Shown here piece by piece: positions 4,583 through 35,959 of a stretch of DNA of 64,000 nt; position 1 is the first letter of the stretch, and each line of letters begins with the position of its first letter. Origin of the DNA: Acidimicrobiales bacterium (GTDB taxonomy: Bacteria > Actinomycetota > Acidimicrobiia > Acidimicrobiales > Palsa-688). Made by a program: the position numbers and the translations under genes. The stretch lies in the NCBI GenBank assembly GCA_036378675.1, contig DASUWA010000010.1, positions 14,661-78,660 on the forward strand, read 5' to 3'. Below the pieces are notes generated by a model, which worked only from the letters and a program-made list of their open reading frames with translations, ran no database searches and was not told the origin of the DNA.

Positions 4583-4927
4583 ATGAGGGTCGAAGGCGTA
4601 TTCCGCGACGCTAAGGAGACGAAGACGGTGCCCGCAGGGACCGTCATCTTCAAGGAAGGCGAAACCGGCAACGAGATGTACGGCATCGTGGAGGGCGAGG
4701 TGGAACTCGCCTCGCCCGAGGGCATCGTCGCCAAGCTCGGGCGTGACGAAGTCTTCGGCGAGATGGCCATCATCGACCACAACACCCGGATGGCCACCGC
4801 CACCGCTACGACCGACACGACCCTGGCCGTCATAGACCGCCAGCGGTTCCTCTGGCTGATCCACGAAACCCCCACCTTTGCCCTTCAGGTGATGCACGCG
4901 ATGGCCGAGCGCCTCCGCCACCACTAG
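4583..4927 (+). CDS. Stand-alone cyclic-nucleotide-binding domain protein
   Basis: 114-aa ORF with the cNMP-binding core FKEGETGNEMYGIVEGEVEL...FGEMAIID...RMATATA. Confidence 0.8.
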   Translation: MRVEGVFRDAKETKTVPAGTVIFKEGETGNEMYGIVEGEVELASPEGIVAKLGRDEVFGEMAIIDHNTRMATATATTDTTLAVIDRQRFLWLIHETPTFALQVMHAMAERLRHH

Positions 4928-5192
4928 GGCTCGAGCCGACGTCGGTGGGCCCGAGGCCCGACGGGGGCATCGCCATTCTGGGCGGCGCCCCGGGCGTTTG
5001 GGCGTGAAAAAGAGCTTCGGGCGGCCTGTTTTGACACCCGAACGCGAAAGTTACGCCCAGAAGAGAGCGGGGTGGCCGGCGGCGTCGTCGGCAGACCGTT
5101 CCAAACGCCCAAACGGGTCACCGTGTCCGCCGCGCTCAATCCCGGCATCTCGGCTACCGAGATACAACCGGAACAAAGCGAAAGGAATCCGG

Positions 5193-5645
5193 GTGGCGTC
5201 CTCAGAAGAATGGTCGGCAGATTGGCTGCTCGCGTCCTGGGCCAGGATCGTCGAGATCCTCAGCCTGGACTACACCGACTTCGGTCTGGGTGTCACGCTC
5301 AACGTCGGCGGCTCCACGTATTCGGGCGTCCTGGTCAGTGGCCGCAAGTGGGTCAGTGAGATGGCAGGGGTCCTGCAGTCGAAGAGCATGGACCCCCGCA
5401 TAGCCCGGGTTCTCGCCCAGAGCTTCGACGAGGTGCGCCAGCACTACGACGACCCCGCGTTCCTCGAACAGCCGCAGCAGTTCCTGCACCTCCTGTACGC
5501 GTCGACGGTCGATCCCCAAGGCGAGCGGACCGGCGAGGGTCTCCCTATGAGGATCCGCCTCGACTCCGTGGCGGCCTGGGCGGTCGCGGGATGGGCTGTG
5601 GGCACCACCACCTGGGCCTCACCCGAGCCGAGCCCCGCCTTCTAG
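5193..5645 (+). CDS. Hypothetical protein
   Basis: Trimmed from ORF 4998-5645 to the GTG at 5193, which follows AAAGGAA by 6-7 nt. High GC3. No family recognised. Confidence 0.45.
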   Translation: MASSEEWSADWLLASWARIVEILSLDYTDFGLGVTLNVGGSTYSGVLVSGRKWVSEMAGVLQSKSMDPRIARVLAQSFDEVRQHYDDPAFLEQPQQFLHLLYASTVDPQGERTGEGLPMRIRLDSVAAWAVAGWAVGTTTWASPEPSPAF

Positions 5646-20430: not shown

Positions 20431-21186
20431 TCAGGTGGGTTTGGCGGCCCCTCCCGACGCCTCTGCGGTGGCCGCCGGTGGGGCGGGCTCCAGCGCGGCG
20501 GGCTTCAACGTCCCAGCCGAGAGCTCGGCCAGGATGGCGTCGGCTTCGCTGGTCAACTCGGCGTGGTGGACGTGCATCTCCTGCACCTCCGGGCTTCCGC
20601 TCGACAGCTCGGTCTGGGCCTGAGCCTCCGCGAACTGCGTGGAGACCTTCTGGCGGATCTCATCGAAGGACGGCACGTTGTTGCCCTGGGTGAGGTCGGT
20701 CACCGCCTTCATGCTCGCGGCCATCTCCTGCTGCATTCTCGCCTGATCGACCTGGGCCAAGATCGTCGAGCGCTCGCTGAGCTTTTGCTGGAGCTGGTCT
20801 GCCGACTCCTGCACCGCCTCGCGGGCGTCGTTGGCGGCCTGCTCGAGCTGTGGGATCTGGGCCGAGAGCGACTGAATCTGCTCACGGATCGAGGCGATGT
20901 TGGTGGCGAAGGCCCGGGCGGCATCGAGGTTGCCTTGCTGCTGGGCGGCCAGCGCCGACTTGGTGTACCGGGCTTCCTGGGTGGACAGCTCGGACAGGCG
21001 CATCTTGGCCAGCTTGTCCTGGGCGATCACGTGGCTGGCGGCGGCCTCCAGGTCGCGATGGTGCTCCTGGAGGGCCCCTATGGCCTGTTCCAGCTGGACC
21101 TTGGGGTCGGCGTGGGTGTCGAGCTCGCTCTGGGCCTTGGCCTGGGCGTAGCTGTTGGCCCTCTTGAACAGATTGCCCCACGACAT
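20431..21186 (-). CDS. pspA: PspA/IM30 family membrane-stress protein
   Basis: 251-aa all-helical, Q/A/E-rich ORF. Its N-terminus ...LFKRANSYAQAKAQSELD..DPKVQLEQAI..L.EH is typical of PspA/IM30. Confidence 0.85.
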   Translation of the reverse strand: MSWGNLFKRANSYAQAKAQSELDTHADPKVQLEQAIGALQEHHRDLEAAASHVIAQDKLAKMRLSELSTQEARYTKSALAAQQQGNLDAARAFATNIASIREQIQSLSAQIPQLEQAANDAREAVQESADQLQQKLSERSTILAQVDQARMQQEMAASMKAVTDLTQGNNVPSFDEIRQKVSTQFAEAQAQTELSSGSPEVQEMHVHHAELTSEADAILAELSAGTLKPAALEPAPPAATAEASGGAAKPT

Positions 21187-23110: not shown

Positions 23111-24106
23111 CTAACTCGGCGCGGGTTGCCCCTCGAATACGGAGACGTAGACGCCGAACTGGGCGATCTCCTTTAGAAAAATGGCCGGGTCGGGGATCAT
23201 CTCGGCCATACCGCCGGCGCCGGCCCTGGTGAGTTGACCGTTGCCTGCCCAGATGGCTGCTCGGCTGGCAACCACGGCGGCCGCGACCGCGGGGGCGATC
23301 GCCGACCCGTAGATCGCGGTTACCGCCTGGCCGTCGACCCAGCCCCGCATCTCCACCCGTGCCGCACCGACCAGGCCCTCCGGGTGGGGAGGGCGAAGCA
23401 TCGGGAGCCACGCGGTCATGCGATCCCGGCGGGTCGCCTCGAACCTGGACGTGATCTTCCTGCAGCCGGGAAATGCCGGCAGAAGCAGAAGGGCATCGGC
23501 GAGCGCAGCCCGGTAGCAGTCGGCCCCGCCCACCGGCTCCGGGAACCAGACCAGCTCCCTCCCCGAACCGCCCGGCCTGCGCCGCCACTCGCCGTCCTCC
23601 CAATCCAACGACAAAGACGACAGCGCCGCGTGATGCCGCCTCGCGCATTCCGGGCCGCCCGTCCCCACGCTGGCTACGTGGATCTCCTCGACCGAGTCGA
23701 ACCTGCTGCGCAGGTGCGCGGCGAGCACACACGTCAGCCCGGGGGCCATCGCCGCGCCCGCAACGATCGATTTGCCCTCGGCTCGAGCGAGCCGATCCGA
23801 GGAAAGAAGCGCCTTCACATCGGACGGATCGTCTGCGCATGACACCACGTGCGAACCGCTGACCACCGCGCTCTCGGCGACACGGCGATTGCTCCTGGGA
23901 GTGGCGAGCACCATGACGTCACCAACAGGCGGGTCGCCGTCATTTTCATTGCGAACCTCGACCTTCCCTCCCAGGGCGCGCGCATGGAATTCAGCTCGCG
24001 GGATGTCGCGCGCGATCACCACAAGCGACTCGACCGCGTCGTCCAAGACGAGGTGTTGGGCAACTCTCCGGCCGACCGCCCCAAAGCCGGCAAGGACGAC
24101 TCTCAA
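23111..24106 (-). CDS. Saccharopine dehydrogenase-like NAD(P)-binding protein
   Basis: Trimmed from ORF 23111-24331 to the TTG at 24106, giving the N-terminus (M)RVVLAGFGAVGRRVAQHL (Rossmann GxGxxG). The TTG overlaps the stop of the small upstream ORF (TTGA). Confidence 0.6.
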   Translation of the reverse strand: MRVVLAGFGAVGRRVAQHLVLDDAVESLVVIARDIPRAEFHARALGGKVEVRNENDGDPPVGDVMVLATPRSNRRVAESAVVSGSHVVSCADDPSDVKALLSSDRLARAEGKSIVAGAAMAPGLTCVLAAHLRSRFDSVEEIHVASVGTGGPECARRHHAALSSLSLDWEDGEWRRRPGGSGRELVWFPEPVGGADCYRAALADALLLLPAFPGCRKITSRFEATRRDRMTAWLPMLRPPHPEGLVGAARVEMRGWVDGQAVTAIYGSAIAPAVAAAVVASRAAIWAGNGQLTRAGAGGMAEMIPDPAIFLKEIAQFGVYVSVFEGQPAPS

Positions 24107-24243
24107 GGAGTTAGCTCGTCCGGCGGGAGCTCCCTCCAGCCGCCCCTCTGCGGTGGGGTGCCCCCGGTCCCGCGCAGGCGAACGATCACGGCAACAACCA
24201 CCGCGGTCCCAAGCGCCAGCAGAGCGCGGCGGAGGACTTTCAC
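24103..24243 (-). CDS. Candidate 46-aa single-TM small protein (below the ORF-track cut-off)
   Basis: GTG at 24243 encodes VKVLRRALLALGTAVVVAVIVRLRGTGGTPPQRGGWRELPPDELTP. The stop TGA overlaps the TTG start of the downstream gene. AGGA lies about 9 nt upstream. Confidence 0.4.
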   Translation of the reverse strand: MKVLRRALLALGTAVVVAVIVRLRGTGGTPPQRGGWRELPPDELTP

Positions 24244-24267
24244 GGGTTGCGATCCTAACGCCGGCCT

Positions 24268-24732
24268 TTAGCTGCCGTTTCCTAGCTCGTACGAGTCGGA
24301 GGGCCGCCCGTCGGGGGAACGCCCGATCCAAGTGATTGTGAGGTGCGTGAACTGCGGACCGCCGGCGCCTTTGTCCACCGCGTTGGTCAGCTGCAGGTTG
24401 GCTTGACCGGACAGCTGCGACTTCCCCGGTTGAAGGTCAACCGTACCGGTGCCGCTTGCGCCGGACGAATCCCACGAACTCCACTGGATGCCGGTAGCCA
24501 TCGTCCCGCTTGTCCCACAGACGATCAGCAGAGTCGTCGGACGGTACGCACCCGCGCCGCAATCGGGGACGGTCACTTCCAACGACACCCGGGTCGTGGT
24601 GGAGGCGGACGTGACCGTGTTTGTGGGCGAAGAGGTCGTGGAACTGGTCCCGACAGCACGTGACGACCCGCAGGCTGCGCCTGCGAGGGACAGCGCCACC
24701 GCGTACAGGCCGAACCGGCCTGTACGGCTCAC
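24268..24732 (-). CDS. Secreted protein or possible lipoprotein, Ser/Thr-rich linker, function unknown
   Basis: Trimmed to the GTG at 24732, which forms a GTGA overlap with the upstream stop. Signal-like RTGRFGLYAVALSLAGAAC-GSS, then a TSSTTSSPTNTVTSASTTT linker and a beta-rich domain. Confidence 0.55.
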   Translation of the reverse strand: MSRTGRFGLYAVALSLAGAACGSSRAVGTSSTTSSPTNTVTSASTTTRVSLEVTVPDCGAGAYRPTTLLIVCGTSGTMATGIQWSSWDSSGASGTGTVDLQPGKSQLSGQANLQLTNAVDKGAGGPQFTHLTITWIGRSPDGRPSDSYELGNGS

Positions 24733-25505
24733 TTGCCGGCGACTCCTGCGGGAGCCGGAATCCGCAGGATCCGGAACGAAACGACGATTAGTGCCGCACA
24801 CACGAGACCCAGCACGGGCTGCGCGTACGAGATCGCGATCACCGCTGTCGTGGCTTGAACAGCTATCGCCAACCTACGAACCGGTTCGCCGGCTCGATCC
24901 AGCTTTCTGTGCAGCACGCGTAGCTCCTGAGGGTCCTGCGCGCTAGTTGTCAGGAGAATCGCGCTTCCCCTGGCCGCGCCGAAACCCGCACAGATCGATA
25001 ACGCGACCCATGGTTGCGTGCTGAGAACAGCAAGAGCCAGGAACACGAACACGGCCGACGTCATCACGTAGGTGGCAACGCCTGTCCCGATCTGCCATCC
25101 GAAGCCACTCGCGTAAACCCACCCGCGGTAGCGAGACAACCAACGATCGTCGACCTGCCGTCTTACAACAGGAAGAACGTTCCCGAATACCCGAGCATCG
25201 ACAGCAGCGCCGAGCAACGCGCTTCCGCCGGCGACCAGCGCGACCACTGCGGGATGGCTCCGCGCGCCGGCGCTCGACGCTCCCGTCGTTACCGCGAAGG
25301 CTGCAAGTCCTAGCGTCGCTCCGCCTGCAGTTGAACCGAGGACGAACCAGGCCGCGGTGACACCGTAGCGATGGCCCCGGCTGCGCTCTCCGAAAGGCGT
25401 GAGGCTCGAGAGCATCGACAGCCCGCATGGAGACCAGGTGGATCTCGCCGCCGCGGCCACCGCTGTTGCTGTTGCCAGAACCAAGAGAATCACGTCGAGG
25501 TGCAT
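24729..25505 (-). CDS. Polytopic membrane protein, CcdA/DsbD-like thiol-disulfide transporter candidate (possibly MauF-like)
   Basis: 258-aa ORF with about 6 TM segments. Has a Cys in TM1 (STWSPCGLSML) and a Cys in a later TM (WVALSICAGFG). GGAGGA lies 3 nt before the ATG. Confidence 0.6.
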   Translation of the reverse strand: MHLDVILLVLATATAVAAAARSTWSPCGLSMLSSLTPFGERSRGHRYGVTAAWFVLGSTAGGATLGLAAFAVTTGASSAGARSHPAVVALVAGGSALLGAAVDARVFGNVLPVVRRQVDDRWLSRYRGWVYASGFGWQIGTGVATYVMTSAVFVFLALAVLSTQPWVALSICAGFGAARGSAILLTTSAQDPQELRVLHRKLDRAGEPVRRLAIAVQATTAVIAISYAQPVLGLVCAALIVVSFRILRIPAPAGVAGK

Positions 25506-25519
25506 CGCTCCTCCAGCCT

Positions 25520-26758
25520 TTACGCAGCCGATCCGAAGAACCCGGCGTCGCCGAAGGTGAAGATTCCGCCGTCCGCGGCGACCAACCAGTAACCCCTGCC
25601 GGTGGGTGTCGCCGCCATGCCGACCACCGGCCGGTTCAGGCGCTCGCTTCCGGTCGAACCGAAGAAGCCGGCGTCACCGAAATTGAAAATGCCCCCGTCC
25701 GCGGCCACCAACCAGTAACCAGACCCGGTGGGTGTGGTGGCCATCCCGACGACCGGTTGGTTGAGATGCTGCCCCCCCATGGAACCCTCGAACGGCGCGT
25801 TGAAGTCGAAGACCCCGCCGTCCGACGCATCGAGGCGATAGCCGGACGTGACTTGATCAACCGAGATTCCGGTAACCGGGCGGTTGAGATGCTGCGATGC
25901 CATCGAACCCTCGTACTGGGCGTCTCCGAAGGTGAACACGCCGCCGTCCGACGCGACCAGGTAGTAGCCGTTGCCGGAGACCGATCGGCACATTCCTACT
26001 AGAGGGCGGTTGAGCGGCTGGCCGGAGAGCGACCCGTACAACTGCGCGGCGCCGAACGCTCGGACGGAGCCGTCGTTGAAGACGATCCAATATCCGTTTC
26101 CTGCGACGGTCGCTGCCATACCCACCGCGTACGTTCCGGTCGGACCGTTCTGGCACGGCGCAAAGTGATTCGCAGTGTTGTTGTCCGTTGCCGCGACGGT
26201 AGAGCAGGTCGGGTCGAAGACCCATGGCGGAGTACAGGACACCATCCGGCACGCGATCCTCCCGCTGCACCCGATTTCCTGATGGCATTGCCCGTACCGG
26301 AACTCGGTACAGCCCACGTGGCGGTAGTCGCAGCTCCCAAGCGCGCACTCGCATGTGAGGCCGTCGCACCCGGGGCAGAAGGTGCCGCCGCTGCAGCCGC
26401 ACCCCTGGCACTCACCCATGCAATCGATGTAGTAACGGGGGCCGGCGCAGTAGACCGACCCGTCCGCCTTCCACCAACCGCCGGCGAACGTTCCGGGAGG
26501 ACACGCGTTGATCCCGTCGTTGATCGTGCAGCAGAACTGCGTATACCCGTCGCAACAGAGCTGGGAGCAATTGCAGCTGGTGCCCGGCACGCACTCGCAG
26601 ATGAACGCATACGCCGAGCCGGGCCTTATGAGGAATTCGACCGGCGAGACCGAAAGCGCCGCGGCGGTGAGGGTCGCCCTGCTCACGAAGCTCCGCCTCG
26701 TTGTCCGTGAGACAAGGAACTCACCGATCGTTGATGTGATCGTCACTGACCGCTCCAT
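25520..26758 (-). CDS. Tat-exported fusion protein: 26-Cys MauA-like (amine dehydrogenase light-chain-like) domain plus five approximately 41-aa propeller-type repeats
   Basis: 412-aa ORF with twin-arginine signal SRTTRRSFVSRATLTAAAL...GSAYA. Residues about 52-202 carry 26 Cys, including CC-x8-CPPGT-x4-WW. Residues about 210-412 are 5 repeats ending GYWLVAADGGIF(T/N)FGDAGFFGS. An alternative GTG start at 26746 gives a GTGA overlap with mauE. Confidence 0.75.
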   Translation of the reverse strand: MERSVTITSTIGEFLVSRTTRRSFVSRATLTAAALSVSPVEFLIRPGSAYAFICECVPGTSCNCSQLCCDGYTQFCCTINDGINACPPGTFAGGWWKADGSVYCAGPRYYIDCMGECQGCGCSGGTFCPGCDGLTCECALGSCDYRHVGCTEFRYGQCHQEIGCSGRIACRMVSCTPPWVFDPTCSTVAATDNNTANHFAPCQNGPTGTYAVGMAATVAGNGYWIVFNDGSVRAFGAAQLYGSLSGQPLNRPLVGMCRSVSGNGYYLVASDGGVFTFGDAQYEGSMASQHLNRPVTGISVDQVTSGYRLDASDGGVFDFNAPFEGSMGGQHLNQPVVGMATTPTGSGYWLVAADGGIFNFGDAGFFGSTGSERLNRPVVGMAATPTGRGYWLVAADGGIFTFGDAGFFGSAA

Positions 26759-27285
26759 CCATCCCGGACCAGGCGCCTAGCGGTCGGCAGAGGATTGGTC
26801 CAAACAACGTACGCAAGAAGGATCACTACCACCGTGACCAGCGCGAGCGGAACGCCCTGCCACGGCTGGCCGGAGAAGACCGACGCGAGACTTCGCGGAC
26901 CGGATGCTGACCACCACACCCCGCACAGCACCGCGCCAGCGTTCAGCGCCGCGTGCGTTATGGTCGGAGGGGAGTCGGGCTTGCCGAAGCAGCCGCACGA
27001 TGACAGCGGCCACCTTCGCCGCAGAGCGCCCGCGACGAACACGGTAAACGCTGCGTAGGAGAGCGCCACGATCGCGCCGGTCATCGCGCCCGGCAGCGCG
27101 AGCGCTGCGAGCGCAACGGCTAGCTCGCAGGCTGCGCCCGCGCGAACGGCGTTTCTGCTGGCCGGTATGCGGGCTACGTGAAGGGCGCGCACCGTGGTGT
27201 CCGGCCGGGCGATCTTCGCCAGCCCTGCGGTTCCGAGGAGCACGACCTCTGCGAGGTAAGGGGCGGTGATCGCGGGTGCCGTCAT
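26743..27285 (-). CDS. MauE/DoxX-family redox-associated membrane protein
   Basis: Trimmed from ORF 26743-27945 to the ATG at 27285 (ATGA overlap with the upstream stop). 180 aa, 4 TM segments, with the characteristic SSCGCFG motif. Confidence 0.75.
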   Translation of the reverse strand: MTAPAITAPYLAEVVLLGTAGLAKIARPDTTVRALHVARIPASRNAVRAGAACELAVALAALALPGAMTGAIVALSYAAFTVFVAGALRRRWPLSSCGCFGKPDSPPTITHAALNAGAVLCGVWWSASGPRSLASVFSGQPWQGVPLALVTVVVILLAYVVWTNPLPTARRLVRDGWSGQ

Positions 27286-27752
27286 GCGGGTTGCACCGAA
27301 AACGATCCGATGAGCTGGTTTGCCCGAGCCGTCAACGGAACCCGGTTGGCAATCGATCCGATAACCGCGTACAAGCAGAAGGCCCGTCCGCGGACGGTGA
27401 CGAACCGTTGCACGCCGGCCTGGCCGCGGATGACGCGCTGGAGTTGCCGGGGCCTGAAGGCGTCGGGCGTCAAACCGGGGATGGCTGCGGCGCTGCGGAA
27501 CAACGCGCTCCCGGCGGCGTCGGGCCCGAACTCGAGAAGGCTCACGAAGACGTCCGAAGCACCGAGCATCTCGACGAGACCTCCGCCGTAGTCGCCGCGC
27601 TCCGATGGGATCGGCACGGTCGCGGCGTGCACGACCGGAAAGGTTCGCTCTTCTGGCCTCGCAGGCCGGCGGTAGATCGTGGCTTCCCAGCCGCTGGGCG
27701 GAACGACCGCCAGACCCATGGCTTCGATCCGACGGATCCCGGAGGTCGTCAT
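27282..27752 (-). CDS. Hypothetical cytoplasmic protein, translationally coupled on both sides
   Basis: 156-aa ORF with no signal peptide or TM segment. ATGA overlaps at both its start (27749-27752) and its end (27282-27285). No family recognised. Confidence 0.6.
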   Translation of the reverse strand: MTTSGIRRIEAMGLAVVPPSGWEATIYRRPARPEERTFPVVHAATVPIPSERGDYGGGLVEMLGASDVFVSLLEFGPDAAGSALFRSAAAIPGLTPDAFRPRQLQRVIRGQAGVQRFVTVRGRAFCLYAVIGSIANRVPLTARANQLIGSFSVQPA

Positions 27753-28543
27753 CCTCGGTCCGGGTACAGGCTGGGATCGCCCGGGCGGATCCCCGCCTCG
27801 GCGAGCGCCCGATCGGCATCGGCATCACGTTCCCGATCGGCGCGCGACCGGCGCCGGCCGAAACTTGTGGTCCCGTCCGCAACCGCATTCGAAACAAGGG
27901 TCCGCACCTGATCCCACGTGGACGCAACGCCCTCCCCGACGACACGCCCGGCTTCTCCAGAGACGTAGACGAAGTAGGGCGCGTAGGGAATGTCGTAGTG
28001 CTCCCAGGCTTCGGTGGACATCACGACAGGAACCCGCGAGGTACCCGGCCCGCCGCCGCCGGTGTGTCCCACGATCGCGCCCGGGGACTCCGCCTCTGTC
28101 CCTCGCGTCACGACAACCAGCCGGGCTCCGCCGGGAACGGCGGGGGCGTCGCCTCGGAACGAGTCCCAGAACCCGCGGCACGTCGCGCACCCCGAAGTCA
28201 GGAACGCGAGGAGGGTGTCGTGATTCACGTCGGCGACCGCGACGCTGAGCGCATCGCCTTGCGGGTTTTGGCCGGTGATATCGGTTATGTCCGAGGCGAG
28301 AGGGCGTTCCGGGGTGGGACGAACCCCGTTGCCGGCCGGGTCGCCGGATCCCCGAACGGTGGGCGGCGCGACTGCATGGGATGTCGCGGCGTCAAGATCT
28401 CCGGATGAAGAGTCTGCGGGGTCGAGGCTCACACCCATCTGGTGGAGCGTTCTCAGTACCTCGGCGTGAGCGCGCAGGAGTCCAGCCACGAGAAGAGCCA
28501 GCAACGCGACCGCAACGGTAAGACCGACGACGAGCGCCGTCAT
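27749..28543 (-). CDS. Membrane-anchored thioredoxin-fold protein (MauD/TlpA-like)
   Basis: 264-aa ORF with N-terminal TM MTALVVGLTVAVALLALLVAGLL, a CxxC motif in FLTSGCATCRGFW and a Trx-like ...PYAPYFVYV segment. Confidence 0.7.
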   Translation of the reverse strand: MTALVVGLTVAVALLALLVAGLLRAHAEVLRTLHQMGVSLDPADSSSGDLDAATSHAVAPPTVRGSGDPAGNGVRPTPERPLASDITDITGQNPQGDALSVAVADVNHDTLLAFLTSGCATCRGFWDSFRGDAPAVPGGARLVVVTRGTEAESPGAIVGHTGGGGPGTSRVPVVMSTEAWEHYDIPYAPYFVYVSGEAGRVVGEGVASTWDQVRTLVSNAVADGTTSFGRRRSRADRERDADADRALAEAGIRPGDPSLYPDRG

Positions 28544-28597: not shown

Positions 28598-30163
28598 TTA
28601 TTGATAGTTGAGAACCGCAGGCTCGCGCACGTCTTTGAGGCTCAATTCGTTGGTCCGGTCACTGGCTTGGGCAGAGTTCACCGCTCGGACCCCGGCGAGC
28701 GCCGGCCAGACGCCGGCAAGAAGAACGCTTATGTGCAGGCCCGCAAAGGCGACATTGTTCAAAGTGCCGGGAGACCTCCCGCGAACCAGACCGTCGACGA
28801 TGGTCCCGACGAGGACCGCGAGAGCCAGCAGCGCCGGCCACACCGCCCGCGGCTGCCGGCCCGACCTGCCGACCTTCGGCGTGACCACGAACGACGCCCG
28901 GGCGCCGACCAGAGCGCGCAGAGCGGCGCTGATGTGAATCCAGAAGCTCGACTCCATCAAGGCGAACGCAGCGAAGCTGTAGCTCCCTTGGCCGGCGACT
29001 GCGACGGTGACCATGCTGGCGCAGAAGTACGGAACGAAATGCGCGAGGAACTGATTGGCGGTCGCCCCGGCAAGGGCCTGCTGGCCGCCGAGGATTCGCA
29101 CAACCGGCAGGGTCATGTAGACCAGGTAGGTCCAGCCGGTGAGAAAGTAGAGGGCGGACAGGAGGAACTGGACCTTCTGGCGAAGCGGCAGCCTTGCGCG
29201 GATCGCGGTAGCTGCTCCGGCGAGGCAACCTCGGGACCATCTCTGTTGCTGGCTGACGTATGAAGCCATGTCCTCCGGGCCGAGCCCGCGGGCGAGGACC
29301 TCCGGCACGTATACGGTGCGCCAGCCTCGCTCCTGGAGGTAGATCGACAGTTCGAAGTCCTCGGTTACCGAACCTTCGGGAATCCCGCCGACTTGTTCCA
29401 GCGCAGACCTGCGGAATACGACGTTGGTCCCGCAGCAGAACATCGATCCGAGCGCGTCCTTGCCCCGGGCTATCACGCCGAAGAACAGGGCTTGCTGGCT
29501 CCACGCGGCCGCTGCCACCGGGTTGGTCGCGTGGTTGGAGTAGTACTGCGGAGTCTGCACGACAGCGACATCGGTGCTGGAGAAGTGCGGAACCGTTGAC
29601 ATCAGAAAATCCGGATCAGGCGCGTGGTCGCAGTCGAAGACCGCGACCAGGGGCGCCGTCGTGGACCGGAGGGCGTGGTTGAGGTTGCCGGCTTTGGCGC
29701 CGCGGCGATCCCCGCGGCGAAGGTATCCCGCGCCGTATCCGGCCGCGAGCTGGGCGATCTCGTCGCTGTCGCCGTCGTCGCAAACGATCACCGAGAAGTT
29801 CGGGTAGTCCAGCTGGCAAGCCGCCGCGAGGGTGGACTCCACGACGCGGGGCTCCTCGTTGTACACGGGAATGAGCACGTTGAGCGGAGGCGCCCACGAC
29901 AGATCCGGGCGAGGGGCGGGTTCTCGAGCCCGCGAGATCGTCCACCAGAACCCCGTCGCCTGCACGAGGTTGAAGATCTCCGCGGCGAGAAGCATTCCGT
30001 ACAGCACCGGGTTGCCAACTCGTCCCGGGGAGAGAAGCCAGACGAAGTACCAGACGCTGAAGACCAGGTCCAGTGGAAGGAGAACCCGCAGCCGGCGGCG
30101 GGCACGCTCCGATCCTTCTGTAGGAGACCAGGTCGTGGCGTTCACAGTTTGAACACGGCTCAT
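28598..30163 (-). CDS. Processive family-2 glycosyltransferase, cellulose synthase (BcsA/CslA)-like, no PilZ domain
   Basis: Trimmed from ORF 28598-31516 to the ATG at 30163 (ATGA overlap with the upstream stop; alternative ATG at 30178). Motifs VIVCDDG, AKAGNLN, VFDCDH, TEDFELS and QQQRWSRG, followed by multiple C-terminal TM segments. Confidence 0.85.
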   Translation of the reverse strand: MSRVQTVNATTWSPTEGSERARRRLRVLLPLDLVFSVWYFVWLLSPGRVGNPVLYGMLLAAEIFNLVQATGFWWTISRAREPAPRPDLSWAPPLNVLIPVYNEEPRVVESTLAAACQLDYPNFSVIVCDDGDSDEIAQLAAGYGAGYLRRGDRRGAKAGNLNHALRSTTAPLVAVFDCDHAPDPDFLMSTVPHFSSTDVAVVQTPQYYSNHATNPVAAAAWSQQALFFGVIARGKDALGSMFCCGTNVVFRRSALEQVGGIPEGSVTEDFELSIYLQERGWRTVYVPEVLARGLGPEDMASYVSQQQRWSRGCLAGAATAIRARLPLRQKVQFLLSALYFLTGWTYLVYMTLPVVRILGGQQALAGATANQFLAHFVPYFCASMVTVAVAGQGSYSFAAFALMESSFWIHISAALRALVGARASFVVTPKVGRSGRQPRAVWPALLALAVLVGTIVDGLVRGRSPGTLNNVAFAGLHISVLLAGVWPALAGVRAVNSAQASDRTNELSLKDVREPAVLNYQ

Positions 30164-32931
30164 ACCTTGAACACCCATACGGTCGCGTTCGCCTTCTTCA
30201 CGACAGCCACCAGACGGTCCTGGTGGCGCAGGTCGGACAAGTATCTGCCGAGCTGCGAAGGCTCGTTGGGAGCCATGAGATTGGAGCTCCCGAGCACGAA
30301 CAGCTCGGTGCCCGCGGGTCGTCCCACCTCGGCCTGACCCAGCTGTACCGCGTCGATGTGCGGCGCGTAGTAGGAGACGACAAGATCGAGGTCTCCGGGT
30401 GAGTAGACGAGGAGGTCGCCGGGGCGGTATCTGACCTGCACGGCGTGCAACGCACCGGCGAAGTCGTAGAGGCGCGGGTTGGACCCGTTCACCTGTTCGT
30501 CGCCGAGCGACCCGGCGAGTAACGCGACGATCGCGACGCATGCTGTGGCCTGCATGCGGATGCTCCGGGACGCTCCGGTTACCAGACGGGAGCAGAGCAA
30601 CAGAAGAGCCACGACGACTCCCGACAAGTAGCGGACCTCGAACAGGTTGCGTTTGACCAGTCCGATCGCGAGGAGCAGAACGACCGGAACCACGGCAGTC
30701 GCCAGCACCGCCGCCGTGCGATCGGTCATGTTCCGGCCGAGCAGGAACAGGGCCAGAAAGATCCCGATGGGCCAAAGAGCCACGATTGCGGCCATGACAG
30801 CGGCCGAGTGGTACCCCACCACTGCCCAGGCCAGGTTGGCCAGGACTGTGTACACCGAGATCGATTGCGCGCCTGCAAGCCCGACCTGCGACGGTGCTCC
30901 GAATCCCTTGCCGGCGGTCTGGTTGACGACGAACTGGTGCCAGGCAAACGGCTCGAGGGGCGCGATCAGCACGGCCATGAGGAACGTGGCGATAAGCAGG
31001 GCGACCAGTAGTTGCCGGCGCTGCTGGGGCCGGCGGATGATTGCCGCTACGAATACAGCCTGTTGCGTGACGAGTTGGAAGACCGCGAAGTACTCGGTCC
31101 AGACGAGAGCCGCGCTCGACAGGACGTAGATGACCCACCCGCCGGCGGTCCCGTACCGAAGGACGCGCGCTTGACCCCAAAGGGCGAGAAGTGCGAAGAG
31201 CATGAACAGCGAGTACATGCGGACTTCCTGCGAGTACCACACAAGGATCGGGGCGACCGACGCGAGCACGCCGGCGATGACGCCCGACCTGCGGTCCCAC
31301 AGGTCGCGCGCCGCCAGGTAAGCGGCGGGCACGGCAAGCGTTCCGGCCAGGACCGACGGCAACCGCATCGCGAGGGGCCCGCTTCCAATGAGATGGTCGG
31401 TCGTCCAAAGAACGGCGAAGTACAGCGGCGGATGGACGTCGGTGGAACCGAGGTTCTTCAGCATCTCGCCGAAAGGCATCGACGCCTGATGGATGCTCGT
31501 CGCCTCGTCGAGCCATATGCCTCTGGGCACGACGAACCTCACCGCCAACCCGGCGAGGGTGACTGCCGACATGGCCAGGACAACCGGATCGTGGGCGGCG
31601 CGTCCTAGGCTGCTAATAGCGCGCCGAGGCAAGCCGTGCGCGGTCGACGAGACGGCCGCTTCGATCCGCTGGCCACTCCTGATGAAATGACTGCCGACGG
31701 CCGGCGCTCGAAGAACGACGAGCGACTCGACGCCGATACCCACCAGTAGCGCCGCGGTAGCGGCCACCGTCGTGGCCGCGACGGTGCCGACACTTCGGCC
31801 CCATATGGCAATCGCAACCCACTGACCGACGACGACAACACCGGCCACCAAAGTTGTACGCGGACCTGCCCCGGTTGCGCAGCGGTGCGCGACAAGGACC
31901 CGGCCGATTCCCAGCAGGCCCATCGCCATCATGTACGGCACCAGGTACGGCGTGATGGACCCGTAGCGGGATCCGAACAACGCGACGCTCAACGCGTGCG
32001 GAGCGATCGCAGTCACGGACACGGCGGACATCCCGAGCACCCCGGCAAGACCCGCCGCGACCGCCAGGCTGTGCTTGTCCCGCCGTACGGCTCGGGGCAG
32101 CAGAACGAGCGGGATGGTGACAGTCGCGAACGCGGCAGCACCTCCGAGTGTGGACAGGGCAGCGTAAGCGGCTGCCTTTCCTCCGGGCAGGATCGCGTTG
32201 GCGAACACGAGATCCTGGGTCTGCAGCAAAGCGAGCAAGGCGAAAGCCGCTGCTGTCCAGCCGGCCGTTCCCTCCCTGCCTGCGGACGCCCGCGATTGGT
32301 AGAGCCGGCGCCGGGCATGCCGTCGGCCACGGGCGACTTCTCTCGCCGTGTATGCAGCGATGACCACGCCCGCCGCCGCTCCGACCGGACCGGTCCAGGC
32401 GGCGAGCGAGAGCCCCACGGAAAGCCGGACCGCCGGTTCCGCCACGAGGCTCTCTACGAGACGCCTATGCCGCCTGGTCCCGTATAGACGACCGCGGTCC
32501 AGCGCGAGCGGCGCGGACGCGGGGAGCACTGCGGCAAGGCCGACGACCATCGGGATGGGAACGTTGAGTAGTGCTGCCAACCCCGGTGAGGCGGCGGCCA
32601 TAACGACCGCGAGCAGCAGGCTCACGGCCGAGACCTTCCGCAGGAGAGCATCGCGTTTGCGTGGATCGACGGCCGTCGCAGCCGAAAGGCTCGTCGCCGG
32701 CAGGCTGAGAACGAGGTAGAGCCCGAGGAAGACGCTCAGGCGGGCGAACCCTGCCGGATCCAGGATTCGCGCAGCGGCAAGGGCAAACACGAGGTTGCCG
32801 GCACCGGCGGCCATCTGTCCCAGCGCGACACCGGCCTGTTCACCTCCGAGCCGGCGCCCCGTTGTAGCCGGTTCACGGTAGGAGAGGACGACGAGCTGTT
32901 CTTCGGCGCCCCCCTGAGTGGTTAAAGCCAC
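30160..32931 (-). CDS. Fusion of a Wzx/MOP-type polysaccharide flippase-like domain (N) and a GT-C (ArnT/PMT-like) glycosyltransferase domain (C)
   Basis: 923-aa ORF. The first approximately 420 aa has 10-12 TM segments with flippase-like composition. It is followed by ...GIWLDEATSIHQA...DVHPPLYF...MRLPSVLAGTLAVPAAYL..., typical of GT39/GT83-type GT-C enzymes, then a soluble C-terminal domain. Confidence 0.7.
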   Translation of the reverse strand: MALTTQGGAEEQLVVLSYREPATTGRRLGGEQAGVALGQMAAGAGNLVFALAAARILDPAGFARLSVFLGLYLVLSLPATSLSAATAVDPRKRDALLRKVSAVSLLLAVVMAAASPGLAALLNVPIPMVVGLAAVLPASAPLALDRGRLYGTRRHRRLVESLVAEPAVRLSVGLSLAAWTGPVGAAAGVVIAAYTAREVARGRRHARRRLYQSRASAGREGTAGWTAAAFALLALLQTQDLVFANAILPGGKAAAYAALSTLGGAAAFATVTIPLVLLPRAVRRDKHSLAVAAGLAGVLGMSAVSVTAIAPHALSVALFGSRYGSITPYLVPYMMAMGLLGIGRVLVAHRCATGAGPRTTLVAGVVVVGQWVAIAIWGRSVGTVAATTVAATAALLVGIGVESLVVLRAPAVGSHFIRSGQRIEAAVSSTAHGLPRRAISSLGRAAHDPVVLAMSAVTLAGLAVRFVVPRGIWLDEATSIHQASMPFGEMLKNLGSTDVHPPLYFAVLWTTDHLIGSGPLAMRLPSVLAGTLAVPAAYLAARDLWDRRSGVIAGVLASVAPILVWYSQEVRMYSLFMLFALLALWGQARVLRYGTAGGWVIYVLSSAALVWTEYFAVFQLVTQQAVFVAAIIRRPQQRRQLLVALLIATFLMAVLIAPLEPFAWHQFVVNQTAGKGFGAPSQVGLAGAQSISVYTVLANLAWAVVGYHSAAVMAAIVALWPIGIFLALFLLGRNMTDRTAAVLATAVVPVVLLLAIGLVKRNLFEVRYLSGVVVALLLLCSRLVTGASRSIRMQATACVAIVALLAGSLGDEQVNGSNPRLYDFAGALHAVQVRYRPGDLLVYSPGDLDLVVSYYAPHIDAVQLGQAEVGRPAGTELFVLGSSNLMAPNEPSQLGRYLSDLRHQDRLVAVVKKANATVWVFKV

Positions 32932-33989
32932 GGATCGGGGGCCAGCGGGACGCCCTCGAGGTCGGTCGTCTCGACGTCACCGCGCTCGAGGACCAGACGC
33001 AGAAGCGCGAGTCCCGCCTCCGCCCTGGCGACTTCTTCCTTCACGGCTGCAGGACTTGGGCCTGCGGAGTCGGCAGCGCGCAGAACAGACGGAGCGAGTG
33101 ACTCTCGGAAACCTGCCGGGGGGAGCCAGGTCTGGTGGAGGCGGCACGCGAGGCCGCGGATGCGGGTCTCGACCGCGATTCCCACCACCGGCACTCCGGC
33201 GGCGGCCGCCGCGTGGATCGCCCGGTACCGCATGGCAACGACGGCGCCCGACTCGGCCATCGCCTCGGCCGCTCCGGTGAGGTCCATCGCCGGAGGCACG
33301 ATCTCCGCGAGCCCGCCGGCGGAGCGAATCTCGGCGAATAGCTCCTCGGCGAGCGCGAAGTCGGCGGTCCCGAGCCCCGTCCACGGCAGAAGGTCGACTC
33401 GCACGCCGTGGAGCGCGAGCTCTCTCAAGCCGAGGAACAACTCGGTTTGGACCCCGCGCGCAGCCGAGGCGTCGAGCGCCACCACGACCGACTGGCCGGA
33501 TGACGGGCCTGAAGCCGCCGGCGACAGGGACATCCACGCCGGGTCCGCAGCAACCCGGATCGGCGCGGGCACACCCGCACCCGCCAGGCATGAAGCCGAT
33601 TCGTCGTCGCTCAGAAGGACGAGATCGGCGCGCCGCACCAGCCGGCGTGCCGCCCACCTCTCGCTCGCCGTAAGAGGACCGCCGGCGCTGACTCCTACCA
33701 GCGCCAGCGGCCGGCGTGGCCGGTTGACGCTCCTCGGGAAGGAGGAATCGAGCGGGGAGGTGAGCGCTGCCGCCGTCGCGGCAGCGAAGCCTTTTCCGGA
33801 GAAGAGGTCGCAGCCGGCCAGCACCACAGCATCCGCCTGCCGGCCCTCGTCCGAGAGCGAGGCCCGAATCGGTCCCGCCGAGGAAGCCCGAAGGTCGTGG
33901 CCGTCCAGGGCAGAGCGGAAGGCGCGAACCAGCGCTCGCGCCCCCAGCGGATCACGCCCGGTGACCGCGGGAAGCAGAACGCTTGGCAT
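32922..33989 (-). CDS. Polysaccharide pyruvyl transferase (CsaB-like) family protein, tentative
   Basis: 355-aa ORF. The pattern GRDPLGARALVRAF...ADAVVLAGCDLF...RRADLVLLSDDESASCL...VAADPAW resembles the PS_pyruv_trans layout. Confidence 0.5.
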   Translation of the reverse strand: MPSVLLPAVTGRDPLGARALVRAFRSALDGHDLRASSAGPIRASLSDEGRQADAVVLAGCDLFSGKGFAAATAAALTSPLDSSFPRSVNRPRRPLALVGVSAGGPLTASERWAARRLVRRADLVLLSDDESASCLAGAGVPAPIRVAADPAWMSLSPAASGPSSGQSVVVALDASAARGVQTELFLGLRELALHGVRVDLLPWTGLGTADFALAEELFAEIRSAGGLAEIVPPAMDLTGAAEAMAESGAVVAMRYRAIHAAAAAGVPVVGIAVETRIRGLACRLHQTWLPPAGFRESLAPSVLRAADSAGPSPAAVKEEVARAEAGLALLRLVLERGDVETTDLEGVPLAPDPWL

Positions 33990-35226
33990 CGGTCACCTCC
34001 TCGTAGATCTCGAGGTGACGCCGGGCCACTTCTGGCCACGATCGGCCTTCGGCAAGGCCTGCGGACCATCTCTCCACTTCAGCGAGCTCGGTGCCTCGCT
34101 TCGCCAGGGACTCGAGTCGCTGAGCGAGCAGGCCCGGCTCGAGGGGCGTCGACATCCCAGGCGGCAGACCGGTCATCTCGGCGAGCGGGGGTGACAGCAA
34201 GGCGGGGACGCCGTACTCCAATGCCAGCGCCAGAACTCCGCTACTCGAAAAAGCCGTTGGATACGCGAGCAAAACTGCGTCGGCGGCTCGGAACCAGCGG
34301 CTCACGTCGGGTTCGGGAACGTACCCGGTGAAGGTCGCAGTTGCACCGAAACGCTCTTCGAGTCCGTCCAGGTAACCCTGCCCGGAAAGTCGGGGATGCT
34401 CGCCTCCGGCCACCACGAGACGAACCGGATGCCCGGCGATCTCGGCAGCCGAGAGCGCCGCTTCGAGCCCCTTGTACGGTGCGACGAAGCCGAAGCACAG
34501 AACGACGAACTCGTCCGGTTCGATGCCGTACTGCGCCCGTAGCGCTGACGGGCGCCCGTCTGACTGTCCCGAAACCTCGTGTCCCTGTCGCAGGGCCGGG
34601 TCCGCCGCCGCACTCCTGATCGACCCGACGGGGAGCACGACCGACCCAGGGACATGCCTCGCGAACGCGCGTTCGTGGACGATCGTTCGGCGGGCGATTC
34701 GACCGATCGACTGCTGCAGCGTCGACAGGCCCGCCCTCGCCAAGGGCGCAGGCATCGACACGCGGTGCAGTTCGGTGAAGGATTTGTCCACCTGGCCGGG
34801 CCGGACGACCTGGTGCATCGTGACGACAGGTCCGGTTCCGGCTCTACGCAACCTGGCCAGCCCGCCGATCAAGCCTGGAACGGCCTCGGGGCCGCCGAAC
34901 AGGAACGCCTCGTGCTGAACATGGGTGACCCGAGCCCCGCTCCGCAGTGCAGCGACGGACGCGCGCATGAGACCGGCTGGGCCCTTGGCGAAGCAGCGTC
35001 GCACCCGGACCCGGCCGTCCAGTTCCGACGGCGAGCCCGGGTCGTTCGAGGGCGCCACAACGGTGACGGTTGCGCCCTCGTCGGCCAAGGCCCTCGCCAG
35101 GTTCTGGGAGTACCAGGCGACGCCGCTGGTCGTGGGAGAGCCCGGACTTGGGTACGGAGCGATCATGGCGATGTCGGGGCGTTGCGCTTCAATCGGCGCC
35201 AACGAGCTCCTCCTCGTCGACTGCAA
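33952..35226 (-). CDS. Family-4 (GT-B) glycosyltransferase
   Basis: 424-aa ORF with IAMIAPYPSP...SGVAWYSQNLARALADEG and a C-terminal ...AVLLAYPTAFSSSGVLALALEYGVPAL (E-x7-E-like region). The listed start is a TTG at 35226; the ATG at 35166 (MIAPYP...) is an equally plausible start. Confidence 0.8.
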   Translation of the reverse strand: MQSTRRSSLAPIEAQRPDIAMIAPYPSPGSPTTSGVAWYSQNLARALADEGATVTVVAPSNDPGSPSELDGRVRVRRCFAKGPAGLMRASVAALRSGARVTHVQHEAFLFGGPEAVPGLIGGLARLRRAGTGPVVTMHQVVRPGQVDKSFTELHRVSMPAPLARAGLSTLQQSIGRIARRTIVHERAFARHVPGSVVLPVGSIRSAAADPALRQGHEVSGQSDGRPSALRAQYGIEPDEFVVLCFGFVAPYKGLEAALSAAEIAGHPVRLVVAGGEHPRLSGQGYLDGLEERFGATATFTGYVPEPDVSRWFRAADAVLLAYPTAFSSSGVLALALEYGVPALLSPPLAEMTGLPPGMSTPLEPGLLAQRLESLAKRGTELAEVERWSAGLAEGRSWPEVARRHLEIYEEVTDAKRSASRGHRA

Positions 35227-35959
35227 GCTCTTCGCCGTGGGCAGATTCGGGGGCCTCGATCGGAAGGACCCTCGAGTGCAGCCACAACCGAAGGGCTGAT
35301 AGCGCCATCCGCTGGCCGTCCCGTGCCGGATGAAGACGGGAGCCGGGCTGATCCACCCATACCGTCGGCACCTCGACGACGCGGAAACCCAAACGCTGAC
35401 AGGCCAGAAGCAGGTCGACGTCGAATAGGAAGTCGCGAGACGAAAGCAACGGCACGACGGCCCTTACCACGTTGCTGCGAAGGACCTTCGCCCCGCATTG
35501 CGTGTCCCGGTAGGGCAGGCCGAACATCGCCCGGACCATGCGGGCAAACAACCGGCTTTCCAGTTTGCGGCTGAACGCCCGCGGGCTGGGCAAGACGGCC
35601 GCCGGGTGCCATCTCGACGCGATCGCCACGTCGGCGGTGGCCGCTATGTCCACCAGGCGTAGGAACTCGGCAGGCGGGGTGGCACAGTCGGCATCGACGA
35701 AGCCGACCAGATCGGCGTCGCAGCGCCGGAGGGTCTCCATGATGACCCCGCCTTTTCCCAGCTTCGGGTAGCTCACCACCTCCACCCGCGAGTCGATCCG
35801 GGCGTGCCGCTCGACCAGCTCCTCGGTGCCGTCCGTGCAGTGGTCCAGCGCCACAAAGAAGCGCACGGCAGGGTCGCTGATCCTCGACCGGAAGGCGTTC
35901 AGGGTTCGGTCGATCCGGTGGGCTTCATTGTGGGCAGGAACGATGACGTCTAGGCGCAA
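35189..35959 (-). CDS. Family-2 glycosyltransferase (polyprenol-phosphate sugar transferase-like)
   Basis: 256-aa ORF with a TTG start at 35959 following AAGGTGG. Motifs DVIVPAHNEA, ALDHCTDGT and FVDADC. Confidence 0.8.
   Translation of the reverse strand: MRLDVIVPAHNEAHRIDRTLNAFRSRISDPAVRFFVALDHCTDGTEELVERHARIDSRVEVVSYPKLGKGGVIMETLRRCDADLVGFVDADCATPPAEFLRLVDIAATADVAIASRWHPAAVLPSPRAFSRKLESRLFARMVRAMFGLPYRDTQCGAKVLRSNVVRAVVPLLSSRDFLFDVDLLLACQRLGFRVVEVPTVWVDQPGSRLHPARDGQRMALSALRLWLHSRVLPIEAPESAHGEELAVDEEELVGAD

Follow-up and report, generated by a model that had tools for sequence, protein, structure and literature searches.

A five-gene cassette was analyzed in a 64-kb stretch of high-GC DNA (~65% GC) from an Acidimicrobiales bacterium, an uncultured soil actinobacterium; the whole stretch is hereafter called the window. 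The five open reading frames (ORFs), named A to E, lie co-directionally on the minus strand and span positions 24729-28543. They encode a putative membrane-anchored thioredoxin-fold protein of the MauD type (A), a probable cytoplasmic binding or escort protein (B), a MauE-family membrane protein (C), a cysteine-rich protein with a leader of the twin-arginine translocation (Tat) type (D), and a homolog of MauF (E). In our assessment, the cassette probably forms an extracytoplasmic pathway of oxidative folding, of the MauD/MauE/MauF type, that is dedicated to D as its private client, and not an amine-oxidizing enzyme. A preliminary description of this DNA had presented the cassette as a self-contained mau-like module for a single unusual client, a Cys-rich protein with a Tat signal. 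This view is retained here, and some of its details are revised.

Organization of the cassette

The cassette is a single minus-strand unit, as had been described, and its junctions were read directly from the sequence. A and B overlap by ATGA at 27752-27749, and B and C by a second ATGA at 27285-27282. At the C/D junction, the TGA stop of C (26745-26743) overlaps a GTG (26746-26744), forming GTGA; an alternative ATG lies upstream at 26758. The GTG is likely the true start of D, since the homologs of D begin near it in alignments. The TAA stop of D (25522-25520) is followed by a 14-nt spacer, aggctGGAGGAgcg, which contains a Shine-Dalgarno-like GGAGGA, and then by the ATG of E at 25505. A same-strand gene for a cellulose-synthase-like GT2 precedes gene A, which begins 54 nt after it. 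The motifs quoted in the preliminary description were all found: SGCATC in A, CGCFG in C, WSPCGLS and LSICAGF in E, and RRSF, CC-x8-CPPGT-x4-WW, and YYIDC in D. D is Cys-rich as claimed, but its cysteines number 27 and not 26, with 26 in the N-terminal domain and one in the repeats.

The MauF-, MauE-, and MauD-like proteins and protein B

Protein E has about six hydrophobic segments and aligns with MauF over 164 columns (hhalign probability 98.2%, E-value 2.7e-14). Paracoccus denitrificans MauF recovered related loci by tblastn at E-values down to 1.5e-13 (37% identity over 168 aa) and the window at 5e-5; BLASTP between protein E and MauF gave an E-value of 7e-5. Both proteins carry the motif STWSPCG, and a block RRQV...W...GFGWQIG is conserved in protein E. 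These alignments identify protein E as a MauF homolog. The initial searches with gene E were empty because MauF itself has no Pfam or NCBIfam model. A CcdA/DsbD-like nature had been suggested earlier for this protein. It was replaced by the MauF assignment, as no DsbD or DsbD_2 match was obtained in Pfam at E ≤ 1 and the sole conserved Cys of the family is C27 (58/60 members), the Cys of LSICAGF being in a non-conserved column. With a MauF homolog, the cassette is more mau-like than had been claimed. A reading of gene E as a second MauE was rejected by hhalign against MauE.

The assignment of protein C to the MauE family was borne out by Pfam PF07291 (MauE), with an E-value of 6.6e-13 and 49.5 bits against a cutoff of 27. 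Its hhalign probability with proteobacterial MauE was 96.7%. Among 71 family members, C97 and C99 are present in 69, F100 in 66, and G101 in 69. K24 and E54 are also conserved, so that the CXC-F-G, Lys, and Glu features are kept in 66-71 of the 71 members. These matches place protein C in the MauE family, and the features agree with the active site (CXC followed by F-G, Lys in the first transmembrane segment, and Glu in the second) described in a recent preprint (bioRxiv 10.64898/2026.03.05.709764). According to that preprint, MauE replaces DsbB in Escherichia coli, requires its CXC motif, and probably binds quinone; the Lys/Glu pair and the CXC site define it as a DsbB-like disulfide generator. 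About 90% of MauE occurrences are without MauA, and MauE was proposed as a generalist (bioRxiv 10.64898/2026.03.05.709764).

Protein A has a hydrophobic segment at residues 4-22, a predicted membrane anchor, and SGCATC at residues 117-122. C119, C122, and P189, probably a cis-Pro, are invariant in all 75 family members, and the C-terminal tail (...AGIxPGDPSLYP) is conserved. The 75-member profile was aligned with seven MauD sequences taken from annotated mau/aau clusters on plasmids, giving a hhalign probability of 97.5% (E-value 7e-12) over 181 columns that include the N-terminal anchor. As a specificity control, single MauD sequences reached 91-97% with the same profile, whereas E. coli TrxA, DsbA, and CcmG, the sequences of which were entered by hand, stayed below 1%. 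The MauD equivalog TIGR02661 gave no match to protein A at E ≤ 1 in NCBIfam (E-value 1.1e-115 for the P. denitrificans MauD control), nothing meaningful was found among the PDB sequences, and 22 homologs compared with Pfam at lax thresholds yielded sub-threshold thioredoxin matches only. The profile comparison thus points to a membrane-anchored CxxC protein that has diverged strongly but resembles MauD specifically. Of the MauD/TlpA-like assignment made earlier, the MauD part stands by profile-profile alignment with controls, and the Pfam thioredoxin match that had been expected was not obtained.

Protein B has no signal peptide, no transmembrane segment, and no conserved Cys or His. Its family counts at least 1806 proteins, all without Pfam domains, and the window protein is 100% identical to protein P0121 from an Acidimicrobiales metagenome-assembled genome (MAG). 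The AlphaFold model (pLDDT 93.1, pTM 0.88) had its best Foldseek matches in the PDB with Tsi3 (E-value 9e-3), MucB, PsbP, MTC28, and EagT6, at TM-scores of ~0.35-0.43. B is probably a cytoplasmic binding or escort protein. It was also compared with MauJ and rejected as such (hhalign probability 0.1%).

The proposed client protein D

Protein D consists of a Tat-type leader, a Cys-rich head, and five repeats of ~41 aa. Its family, defined by the N-terminal 215 residues, has more than 281 close homologs and, at 50% identity, forms 616 clusters. An invariant twin arginine is seen in 81/81 members, with the consensus SRRSFL (compare S/T-R-R-x-F-L plus a hydrophobic h-region); the NCBIfam TAT_signal model gave 14.1 bits, under its cutoff of 16.7. 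The leader of D aligned with MauA leaders at a hhalign probability of 95% (E-value 2.9e-8), and both have an 'LVER'-like helix ~12 residues before the twin arginine. This likeness was compared with shuffled MauA leaders. With the twin-arginine core fixed, the true score of 37.1 was not reached by any of 150 shuffled leaders (23.3 ± 2.0). Permutation of the n-region alone lowered the score to 27.8 ± 2.2, again with 0/150 reaching the true value, and permutation of the h/c region left it unaffected. By these controls, the likeness between the D and MauA leaders is real and not due to the twin-arginine motif alone.

The head has 24 conserved Cys columns. Its most conserved stretch reads N84-x-C86-P87...G94-W95-W96...C104...Y109...D112-C113, with CPPGT...WW at 26471-26503. 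The AlphaFold model of residues 40-212 (pLDDT 85.4, pTM 0.81) was compared with the PDB by Foldseek, a tool that is weak on small irregular disulfide-rich folds; no match was obtained at E ≤ 0.001, and the best E-value was 4.3. The head is apparently an unannotated domain of a new fold, as judged by this model.

The repeats follow the pattern GYWLV...FGDA..FGS and include LNRPVVGM. They had no match in Pfam and are probably a beta-propeller-like binding or anchoring module. Other tails are found in relatives. Among 94 longer representatives of the D family, the Pfam domains after the Cys-rich head were LGFP (29), CWB2 (5), SLH (4), FG-GAP-type (4), DUF4214 (3), ricin-B (1), and tectonin (1). 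Given this variety of tails, the functional unit that stays constant is the head, and the tail serves as an exchangeable anchor to wall or glycan. In 2/94 called proteins, a Pfam MauE domain precedes the D head; these are either true fusions or read-through of the overlapping stop and start codons in the gene calls. In four representatives (P0386, P0391, P0468, and P0486), the head begins at residue 160-198 after an N-terminal extension, which makes them candidates for the two proteins with the MauE domain.

Conservation of the cassette in related genomes

A profile of the D family was scanned against one genome per GTDB species and gave at least 510 loci; the best 80 were almost all in Acidimicrobiales or Acidimicrobiaceae MAGs. 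Synteny was determined by tblastn of the five window proteins against related loci, and 63 species-level loci with enough flank were counted. Recurrence of the gene order had been proposed as a check on the preliminary description, and the order A-B-C-D-E on a single strand was found in 55/63 loci. The remaining loci had A-E-B-C-D (3), C-A-E-B-D (2), A-E-B-D (2), or A-B-D (1). All 63 loci have A, B, and D, whereas E was found in 62 and C in 60, and the median identity to the window proteins is 41-50% across the cassette loci. The five-gene arrangement is far beyond chance. The cassette also follows the Cys-rich head whatever the tail: LGFP-tailed D occurs in the order C-A-B-D, CWB2-tailed D in the order A-E-B-C-D, and two further tail types (loci L002 and L004) also have the cassette.

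A different explanation is that A, C, and E are general housekeeping disulfide machinery, with D as a neighbor and one client among many. The coupling by overlapping stop and start codons, and an order that is kept although the proteins are only ~40-50% identical, speak against it, as does the MAG ZJ2.bin36 (JAKBAM01), in which two complete cassettes (L012 and L014) each have their own D gene. Housekeeping machinery would agree with the proposal that MauE is a generalist mostly unlinked to MauA (bioRxiv 10.64898/2026.03.05.709764) and with the occurrence of stand-alone D paralogs far from any cassette. It would not lead one to expect a cassette that tracks the head across tail types, two called proteins with a MauE domain N-terminal to the D head, or a MauA-like leader, which suggests specific recognition. 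We regard this explanation as rather improbable.

The two cassettes of ZJ2.bin36 differ in order, one being A-E-B-C-D and the other A-B-C-D-E. On a long-read contig (L003, 5500-9700), homologs of A to E appear scattered and partly uncalled, as if this copy of the cassette were frameshifted or rearranged. Two complete chromosomes (OY969793.1 and OY969923.1) also have the cassette.

Relation of D to the amine dehydrogenase light chain

The preliminary description had likened the Cys-rich domain of D to the methylamine dehydrogenase light chain. Membership was not supported, and the absence of such a match had been named beforehand as evidence against that description. D had no Pfam or NCBIfam match at E ≤ 1, including PF02975 (Me-amine-dh_L) and TIGR02659, whereas P. 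denitrificans MauA as a positive control gave 2e-53 in Pfam and 2.8e-120 in NCBIfam. None of 34 D homologs matched Pfam Me-amine-dh_L at E ≤ 10. The PDB sequences gave nothing with the single sequence or the profile, and Foldseek of the head model against the PDB returned no chain of methylamine dehydrogenase (MADH), aralkylamine dehydrogenase (AADH), or quinohemoprotein amine dehydrogenase (QHNDH). As far as these searches can detect, D does not belong to the light-chain family of the amine dehydrogenases.

The other mau genes were also searched for. With P. denitrificans MauB, AauB, MauG, amicyanin, and MauJ as queries, tblastn gave no match below E 0.1, either in the window or in the 80 related loci with flanks of up to 6 kb on each side. 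CxxCH-coding patterns number three in the window, and 2.2 are expected by chance. The earlier statement that heavy chain, MauG, and cupredoxin are missing nearby thus holds for the 64-kb window and extends to the 80 loci. The label 'cofactor maturation', which had been attached to the cassette, has no support; the cassette contains no MauG, flavoprotein, or radical S-adenosylmethionine (SAM) candidate.

Some resemblance to MauA is seen beyond the leader. When leader and mature domain were aligned together, a collinear alignment of 109 columns was obtained (hhalign probability 90.7%); it is driven by the leader and runs through CPPGT to W96. Light chains are marked by beta-Trp57 and beta-Trp108, which form tryptophan tryptophylquinone (TTQ), and by the catalytic Asp76. 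Of the invariant pair W95-W96 of D, W96 falls opposite the TTQ-forming beta-Trp57 in a stretch that is aligned with low confidence, and the Y-x-D-C motif of D is offset by three columns from YRDCC of MauA. The mature domain of D alone aligned with MauA over 20 columns around CPPGT (probability 2%, P 0.024), a score reached by 3/120 column shuffles, so that the common CPPGT...W motif is of marginal significance. These resemblances are a lead for distant common ancestry or a common recognition element, and not proof of membership.

They do bear on the alternative that D is a diverged tryptophylquinone-type protein, with TTQ or a cofactor like cysteine tryptophylquinone (CTQ), derived from an amine dehydrogenase small subunit. 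The cassette would then build cofactor and disulfides without MauG, and the fused tail would replace the heavy chain. We regard this as unlikely. The MauA-like n-region of the leader, the leader-driven alignment that places W96 opposite beta-Trp57, and the presence of all three small-subunit helpers (MauD, MauE, and MauF) are in its favor, and the invariants of D (N-x-C-P, G-W-W, C, Y, and D-C) coincide with the most conserved active-site stretch of MauA. Yet no conserved counterpart of beta-Trp108 was identified in D, and the hidden Markov model (HMM) searches, the homologs, and Foldseek were all negative for the light chain, as given above. The likeness of the mature domain is marginal, and it remained so (P=0.008) against a MauA-like ORF of Thermomicrobium. 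No MauG, LodB/GoxB-type flavoprotein, or QhpD-type radical SAM enzyme is present in the window or within 6 kb at the 80 loci. The repeats are unrelated to MauB: a reading as a fused MauB heavy chain was rejected (hhalign probability 0.2%). In relatives, they are swapped for wall anchors, which argues that the tail is an anchor and not a catalytic partner.

A bolder form of this alternative would make D the founder of a wall-anchored redox class that arose from the amine dehydrogenase small subunit. In that form, CPxG...GWW...Y..DC would carry a Trp-derived (TTQ/CTQ-like) or other cross-linked cofactor made without MauG, and MauD/E/F and B would recognize the n-region of the leader. If true, it would reveal the long-sought common job of MauF/E/D in small-subunit biogenesis; we find it similarly doubtful.

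The Thermomicrobium roseum ORF mentioned above was tried as a bridge between MauA and D and rejected, since it matched MauA at 98.5% but D at P=0.008 only. It is an unannotated ORF of clear MauA family on plasmid NC_011961.1 (locus L094, ~4860-5312). Its position is just upstream of a gene whose annotation is a MauE/DoxX family protein of 596 aa, and the cluster contains a second annotated light-chain gene. The locus is a non-canonical mau-like cluster in Thermomicrobiota.

Proposed pathway and points against it

For the preferred reading, a dedicated oxidative-folding system for D, the following pathway is proposed. D would be made with its long leader, possibly escorted in the cytoplasm by the PsbP-like B, and exported via the Tat pathway. 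At the outer face of the membrane, MauE (C) would make disulfides de novo and pass the electrons to menaquinone. The anchored MauD-like protein A would be re-oxidized by MauE and would introduce or shuffle up to 12 disulfides in the D head. The MauF-like protein E may act alongside A via its single membrane-proximal Cys, for example as a holdase or in a mixed-disulfide relay. Folded D would finally be held at the cell surface by its repeat domain. The homologies, motifs, gene coupling, and synteny are observed, whereas the route of the electrons, the membrane topology, the formation of disulfides, what B and E do, and export by Tat are inferred. In classical mau systems, the small subunit does not accumulate without MauF. 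In Methylobacterium extorquens, mauF, mauE, and mauD mutants reportedly lack the small subunit, and mauG mutants are said to keep it (Chistoserdov et al. 1994, J Bacteriol). The same three helpers are encoded in the cassette, in keeping with a module for clients of the small-subunit kind.

Several points weigh against this pathway. Tat substrates are normally folded before export, which is awkward with 12 extracytoplasmic disulfides; the same paradox applies to MauA, a Tat substrate with six disulfides. The disulfides of D are themselves deduced only from the helper proteins and from its conserved Cys being even in number. Protein A has no Pfam or NCBIfam match at E ≤ 1 and hence no significant Pfam thioredoxin match. 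The PsbP/Mog1/DUF1795-like fold of B is a weak match of its model (E-value ~0.01, TM-score 0.35-0.43), and its role in the pathway is a guess. No literature on the function of MauF was found. Stand-alone D paralogs without A, B, C, and E exist (L001, 8001-8855; L006, 6001-6801), with heads 71-76% identical; for some copies, the helpers must therefore be able to work in trans or else not be required. Lastly, MauE may be a reductase according to Alvarez et al., as cited in bioRxiv 10.64898/2026.03.05.709764.

The last point and the Tat-type leader also enter into a further alternative, in which the cysteines of D bind metal (Fe-S, Cu, or Zn clusters). Assembly of these clusters before export would account for the Tat signal, and outside the cell the MauD/E/F-like proteins would not oxidize the thiols but protect them or keep them reduced. 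Proteins loaded with a cofactor are typically exported by Tat, and D has very dense CxC and CC motifs. However, MauA sets the precedent of a Tat substrate with disulfides, the number of conserved Cys in D is even, and the confident AlphaFold fold has beta-hairpins, unlike a metallothionein-like coil. The cassette also has no metallochaperone or cluster-assembly gene. A reductase role of MauE, the earlier proposal that the preprint cites, would favor metal binding; complementation of dsbB mutants by MauE indicates an oxidase role (bioRxiv 10.64898/2026.03.05.709764). Metal binding is, in our view, highly improbable.

Features of the locus and neighboring genes

The positions of the genes and motifs are given in Table 1.

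Table 1. Genes, domains, and motifs of the cassette in the window.
Feature	Position	Strand	Description
Gene A, 264 aa	27749..28543	(-)	ORF; putative membrane-anchored thioredoxin-fold protein, MauD-like
Gene B, 156 aa	27282..27752	(-)	ORF; predicted alpha/beta fold, weakly PsbP/Mog1/DUF1795-like
Gene C, 180 aa	26743..27285	(-)	ORF; MauE-family membrane protein
Gene D, 412 aa from ATG at 26758 (408 aa if GTG 26746 is the start)	25520..26758	(-)	ORF; probable client
Gene E, 258 aa	24729..25505	(-)	ORF; polytopic membrane protein, MauF homolog
CxxC active-site motif C-A-T-C of gene A	28178..28189	(-)	C119, C122 in 75/75 family members
CGCFG motif of gene C, proposed redox-active CXC site	26983..26997	(-)	Family conservation
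Long Tat-type leader of D	26606..26758	(-)	R21, R22 at 26693-26698; extended n-region, MauA-like
Cys-rich head of D, ~residues 52-205	26144..26605	(-)	24 conserved Cys columns
Five tandem ~41-aa repeats of D	25523..26110	(-)	Repeat anatomy from sequence
RSTWSPCGxSM motif of gene E	25422-25442	(-)	Family conservation; holds C27

Directly upstream of the cassette and on the same strand, a cell-envelope polysaccharide cluster occupies 28598-35959 (-). It includes a cellulose-synthase-like GT2, a 923-aa PMT_2-type membrane glycosyltransferase, a polysaccharide pyruvyl transferase, a GT4, and a further GT2. Pyruvylated wall polymers are ligands of SLH anchors; SLH domains are present in some D relatives, and a pyruvyl transferase lies upstream of the window cassette. 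A conserved link to the upstream polysaccharide genes was rejected, as tblastn of the window glycosyltransferases against 86 loci gave none. Glycan genes do recur near some D copies, though not as a homologous neighborhood. The stand-alone D paralogs of L001 and L006 adjoin a methyltransferase gene and DprE1/DprE2/UbiA-like genes of an arabinan-type decaprenyl-phosphate sugar pathway.

After gene E, a 177-aa ORF at 24268-24801 (-) resembles a lipoprotein in its hydrophobic N-terminus, its Cys, and its linker rich in Ser/Thr. It is followed by a 406-aa ORF at 23111-24331 (-) with no Pfam match. Both recur downstream of the cassette in the closest relatives only (L007, L008, and L011). A gene of the PspA/IM30 family, a membrane-stress protein, lies ~3.5 kb downstream of the cassette at 20431-21186 (-).

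Comparison with known systems

No description was found in the literature of MauF in a setting other than a mau cluster, of the protein families of B and D, of the common leader, or of the five-gene cassette. It is already known that MauE occurs without MauA and that mauE/mauD lie beside Cys-rich peptide genes in Streptomyces. The cassette is no new principle. It is the first case that we found in which MauF, MauE, and MauD travel together apart from any cluster for methylamine or aralkylamine dehydrogenase, which implies that these helpers, which the small subunit needs in order to accumulate, behave as an evolutionary module able to serve another client. A cassette without nearby MauB and MauG also provides a less confounded setting for asking what MauF, MauD, and MauE do. 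The leader n-region common to MauA and D suggests a leader-recognition step. The D family is large, lacks Pfam annotation and a detectable PDB fold, and carries wall-binding modules; it is therefore probably a major component of the cell surface, with as many as 12 disulfides, in Acidimicrobiia from soil and peat.

As in the classical mau and aau clusters (P. denitrificans mauFBEDACJG; aauBEDA), homologs of MauD, MauE, and MauF flank a gene in the position of the small subunit, and the client is Cys-rich, with a long twin-arginine leader, a MauA-like n-region, and a short CPPGT...W motif. Unlike in those clusters, the surroundings are without MauB, MauG, amicyanin or cytochrome, and MauJ, and an extra conserved cytoplasmic gene, B, is present in the order D-like, B, E-like, client, F-like. 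The mature domain of D differs from MauA in being outside Me-amine-dh_L by sequence and fold, in having ~24 conserved Cys against 12, and in its fusion to modules that bind the wall or glycans. The cassette belongs to a monoderm host of the Acidimicrobiales, whereas the mau hosts are Proteobacteria.

In Streptomyces, orphan mauE/mauD genes were reported beside genes of Cys-rich (≥8 Cys) products in candidate clusters for RiPPs, peptides that are made by the ribosome and modified after translation (decRiPPter; PMC7794033). These clusters likewise place orphan mauE/mauD homologs next to a Cys-rich product gene in Actinobacteria. Their products are short predicted peptides, whereas the client here is a wall-anchored protein of 400-700 aa with predicted Tat export and a conserved folded domain of 155 aa, and MauF-like and B genes were not reported there (PMC7794033).

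The proposed system resembles DsbA/DsbB, and the actinobacterial VKOR with a DsbA-like protein, in that a quinone-linked membrane thiol oxidase would work with a thioredoxin-fold carrier. Those are unrelated families, and they are not operon-linked to a single client. The nearest comparison for gene C is the stand-alone MauE (bioRxiv 10.64898/2026.03.05.709764), with which it has in common the Pfam family, the CXC-F-G loop, the Lys/Glu pair, and the absence of MauA. MauF is not mentioned in that preprint, and the word Actinomycetota is absent from its text. Unlike the generalist MauE proposed there, gene C is locked in an operon with a MauD-like gene, a MauF-like gene, and one client, and the cassette is thereby a concrete case of client-dedicated MauE oxidative folding, as we propose it, in a monoderm bacterium.

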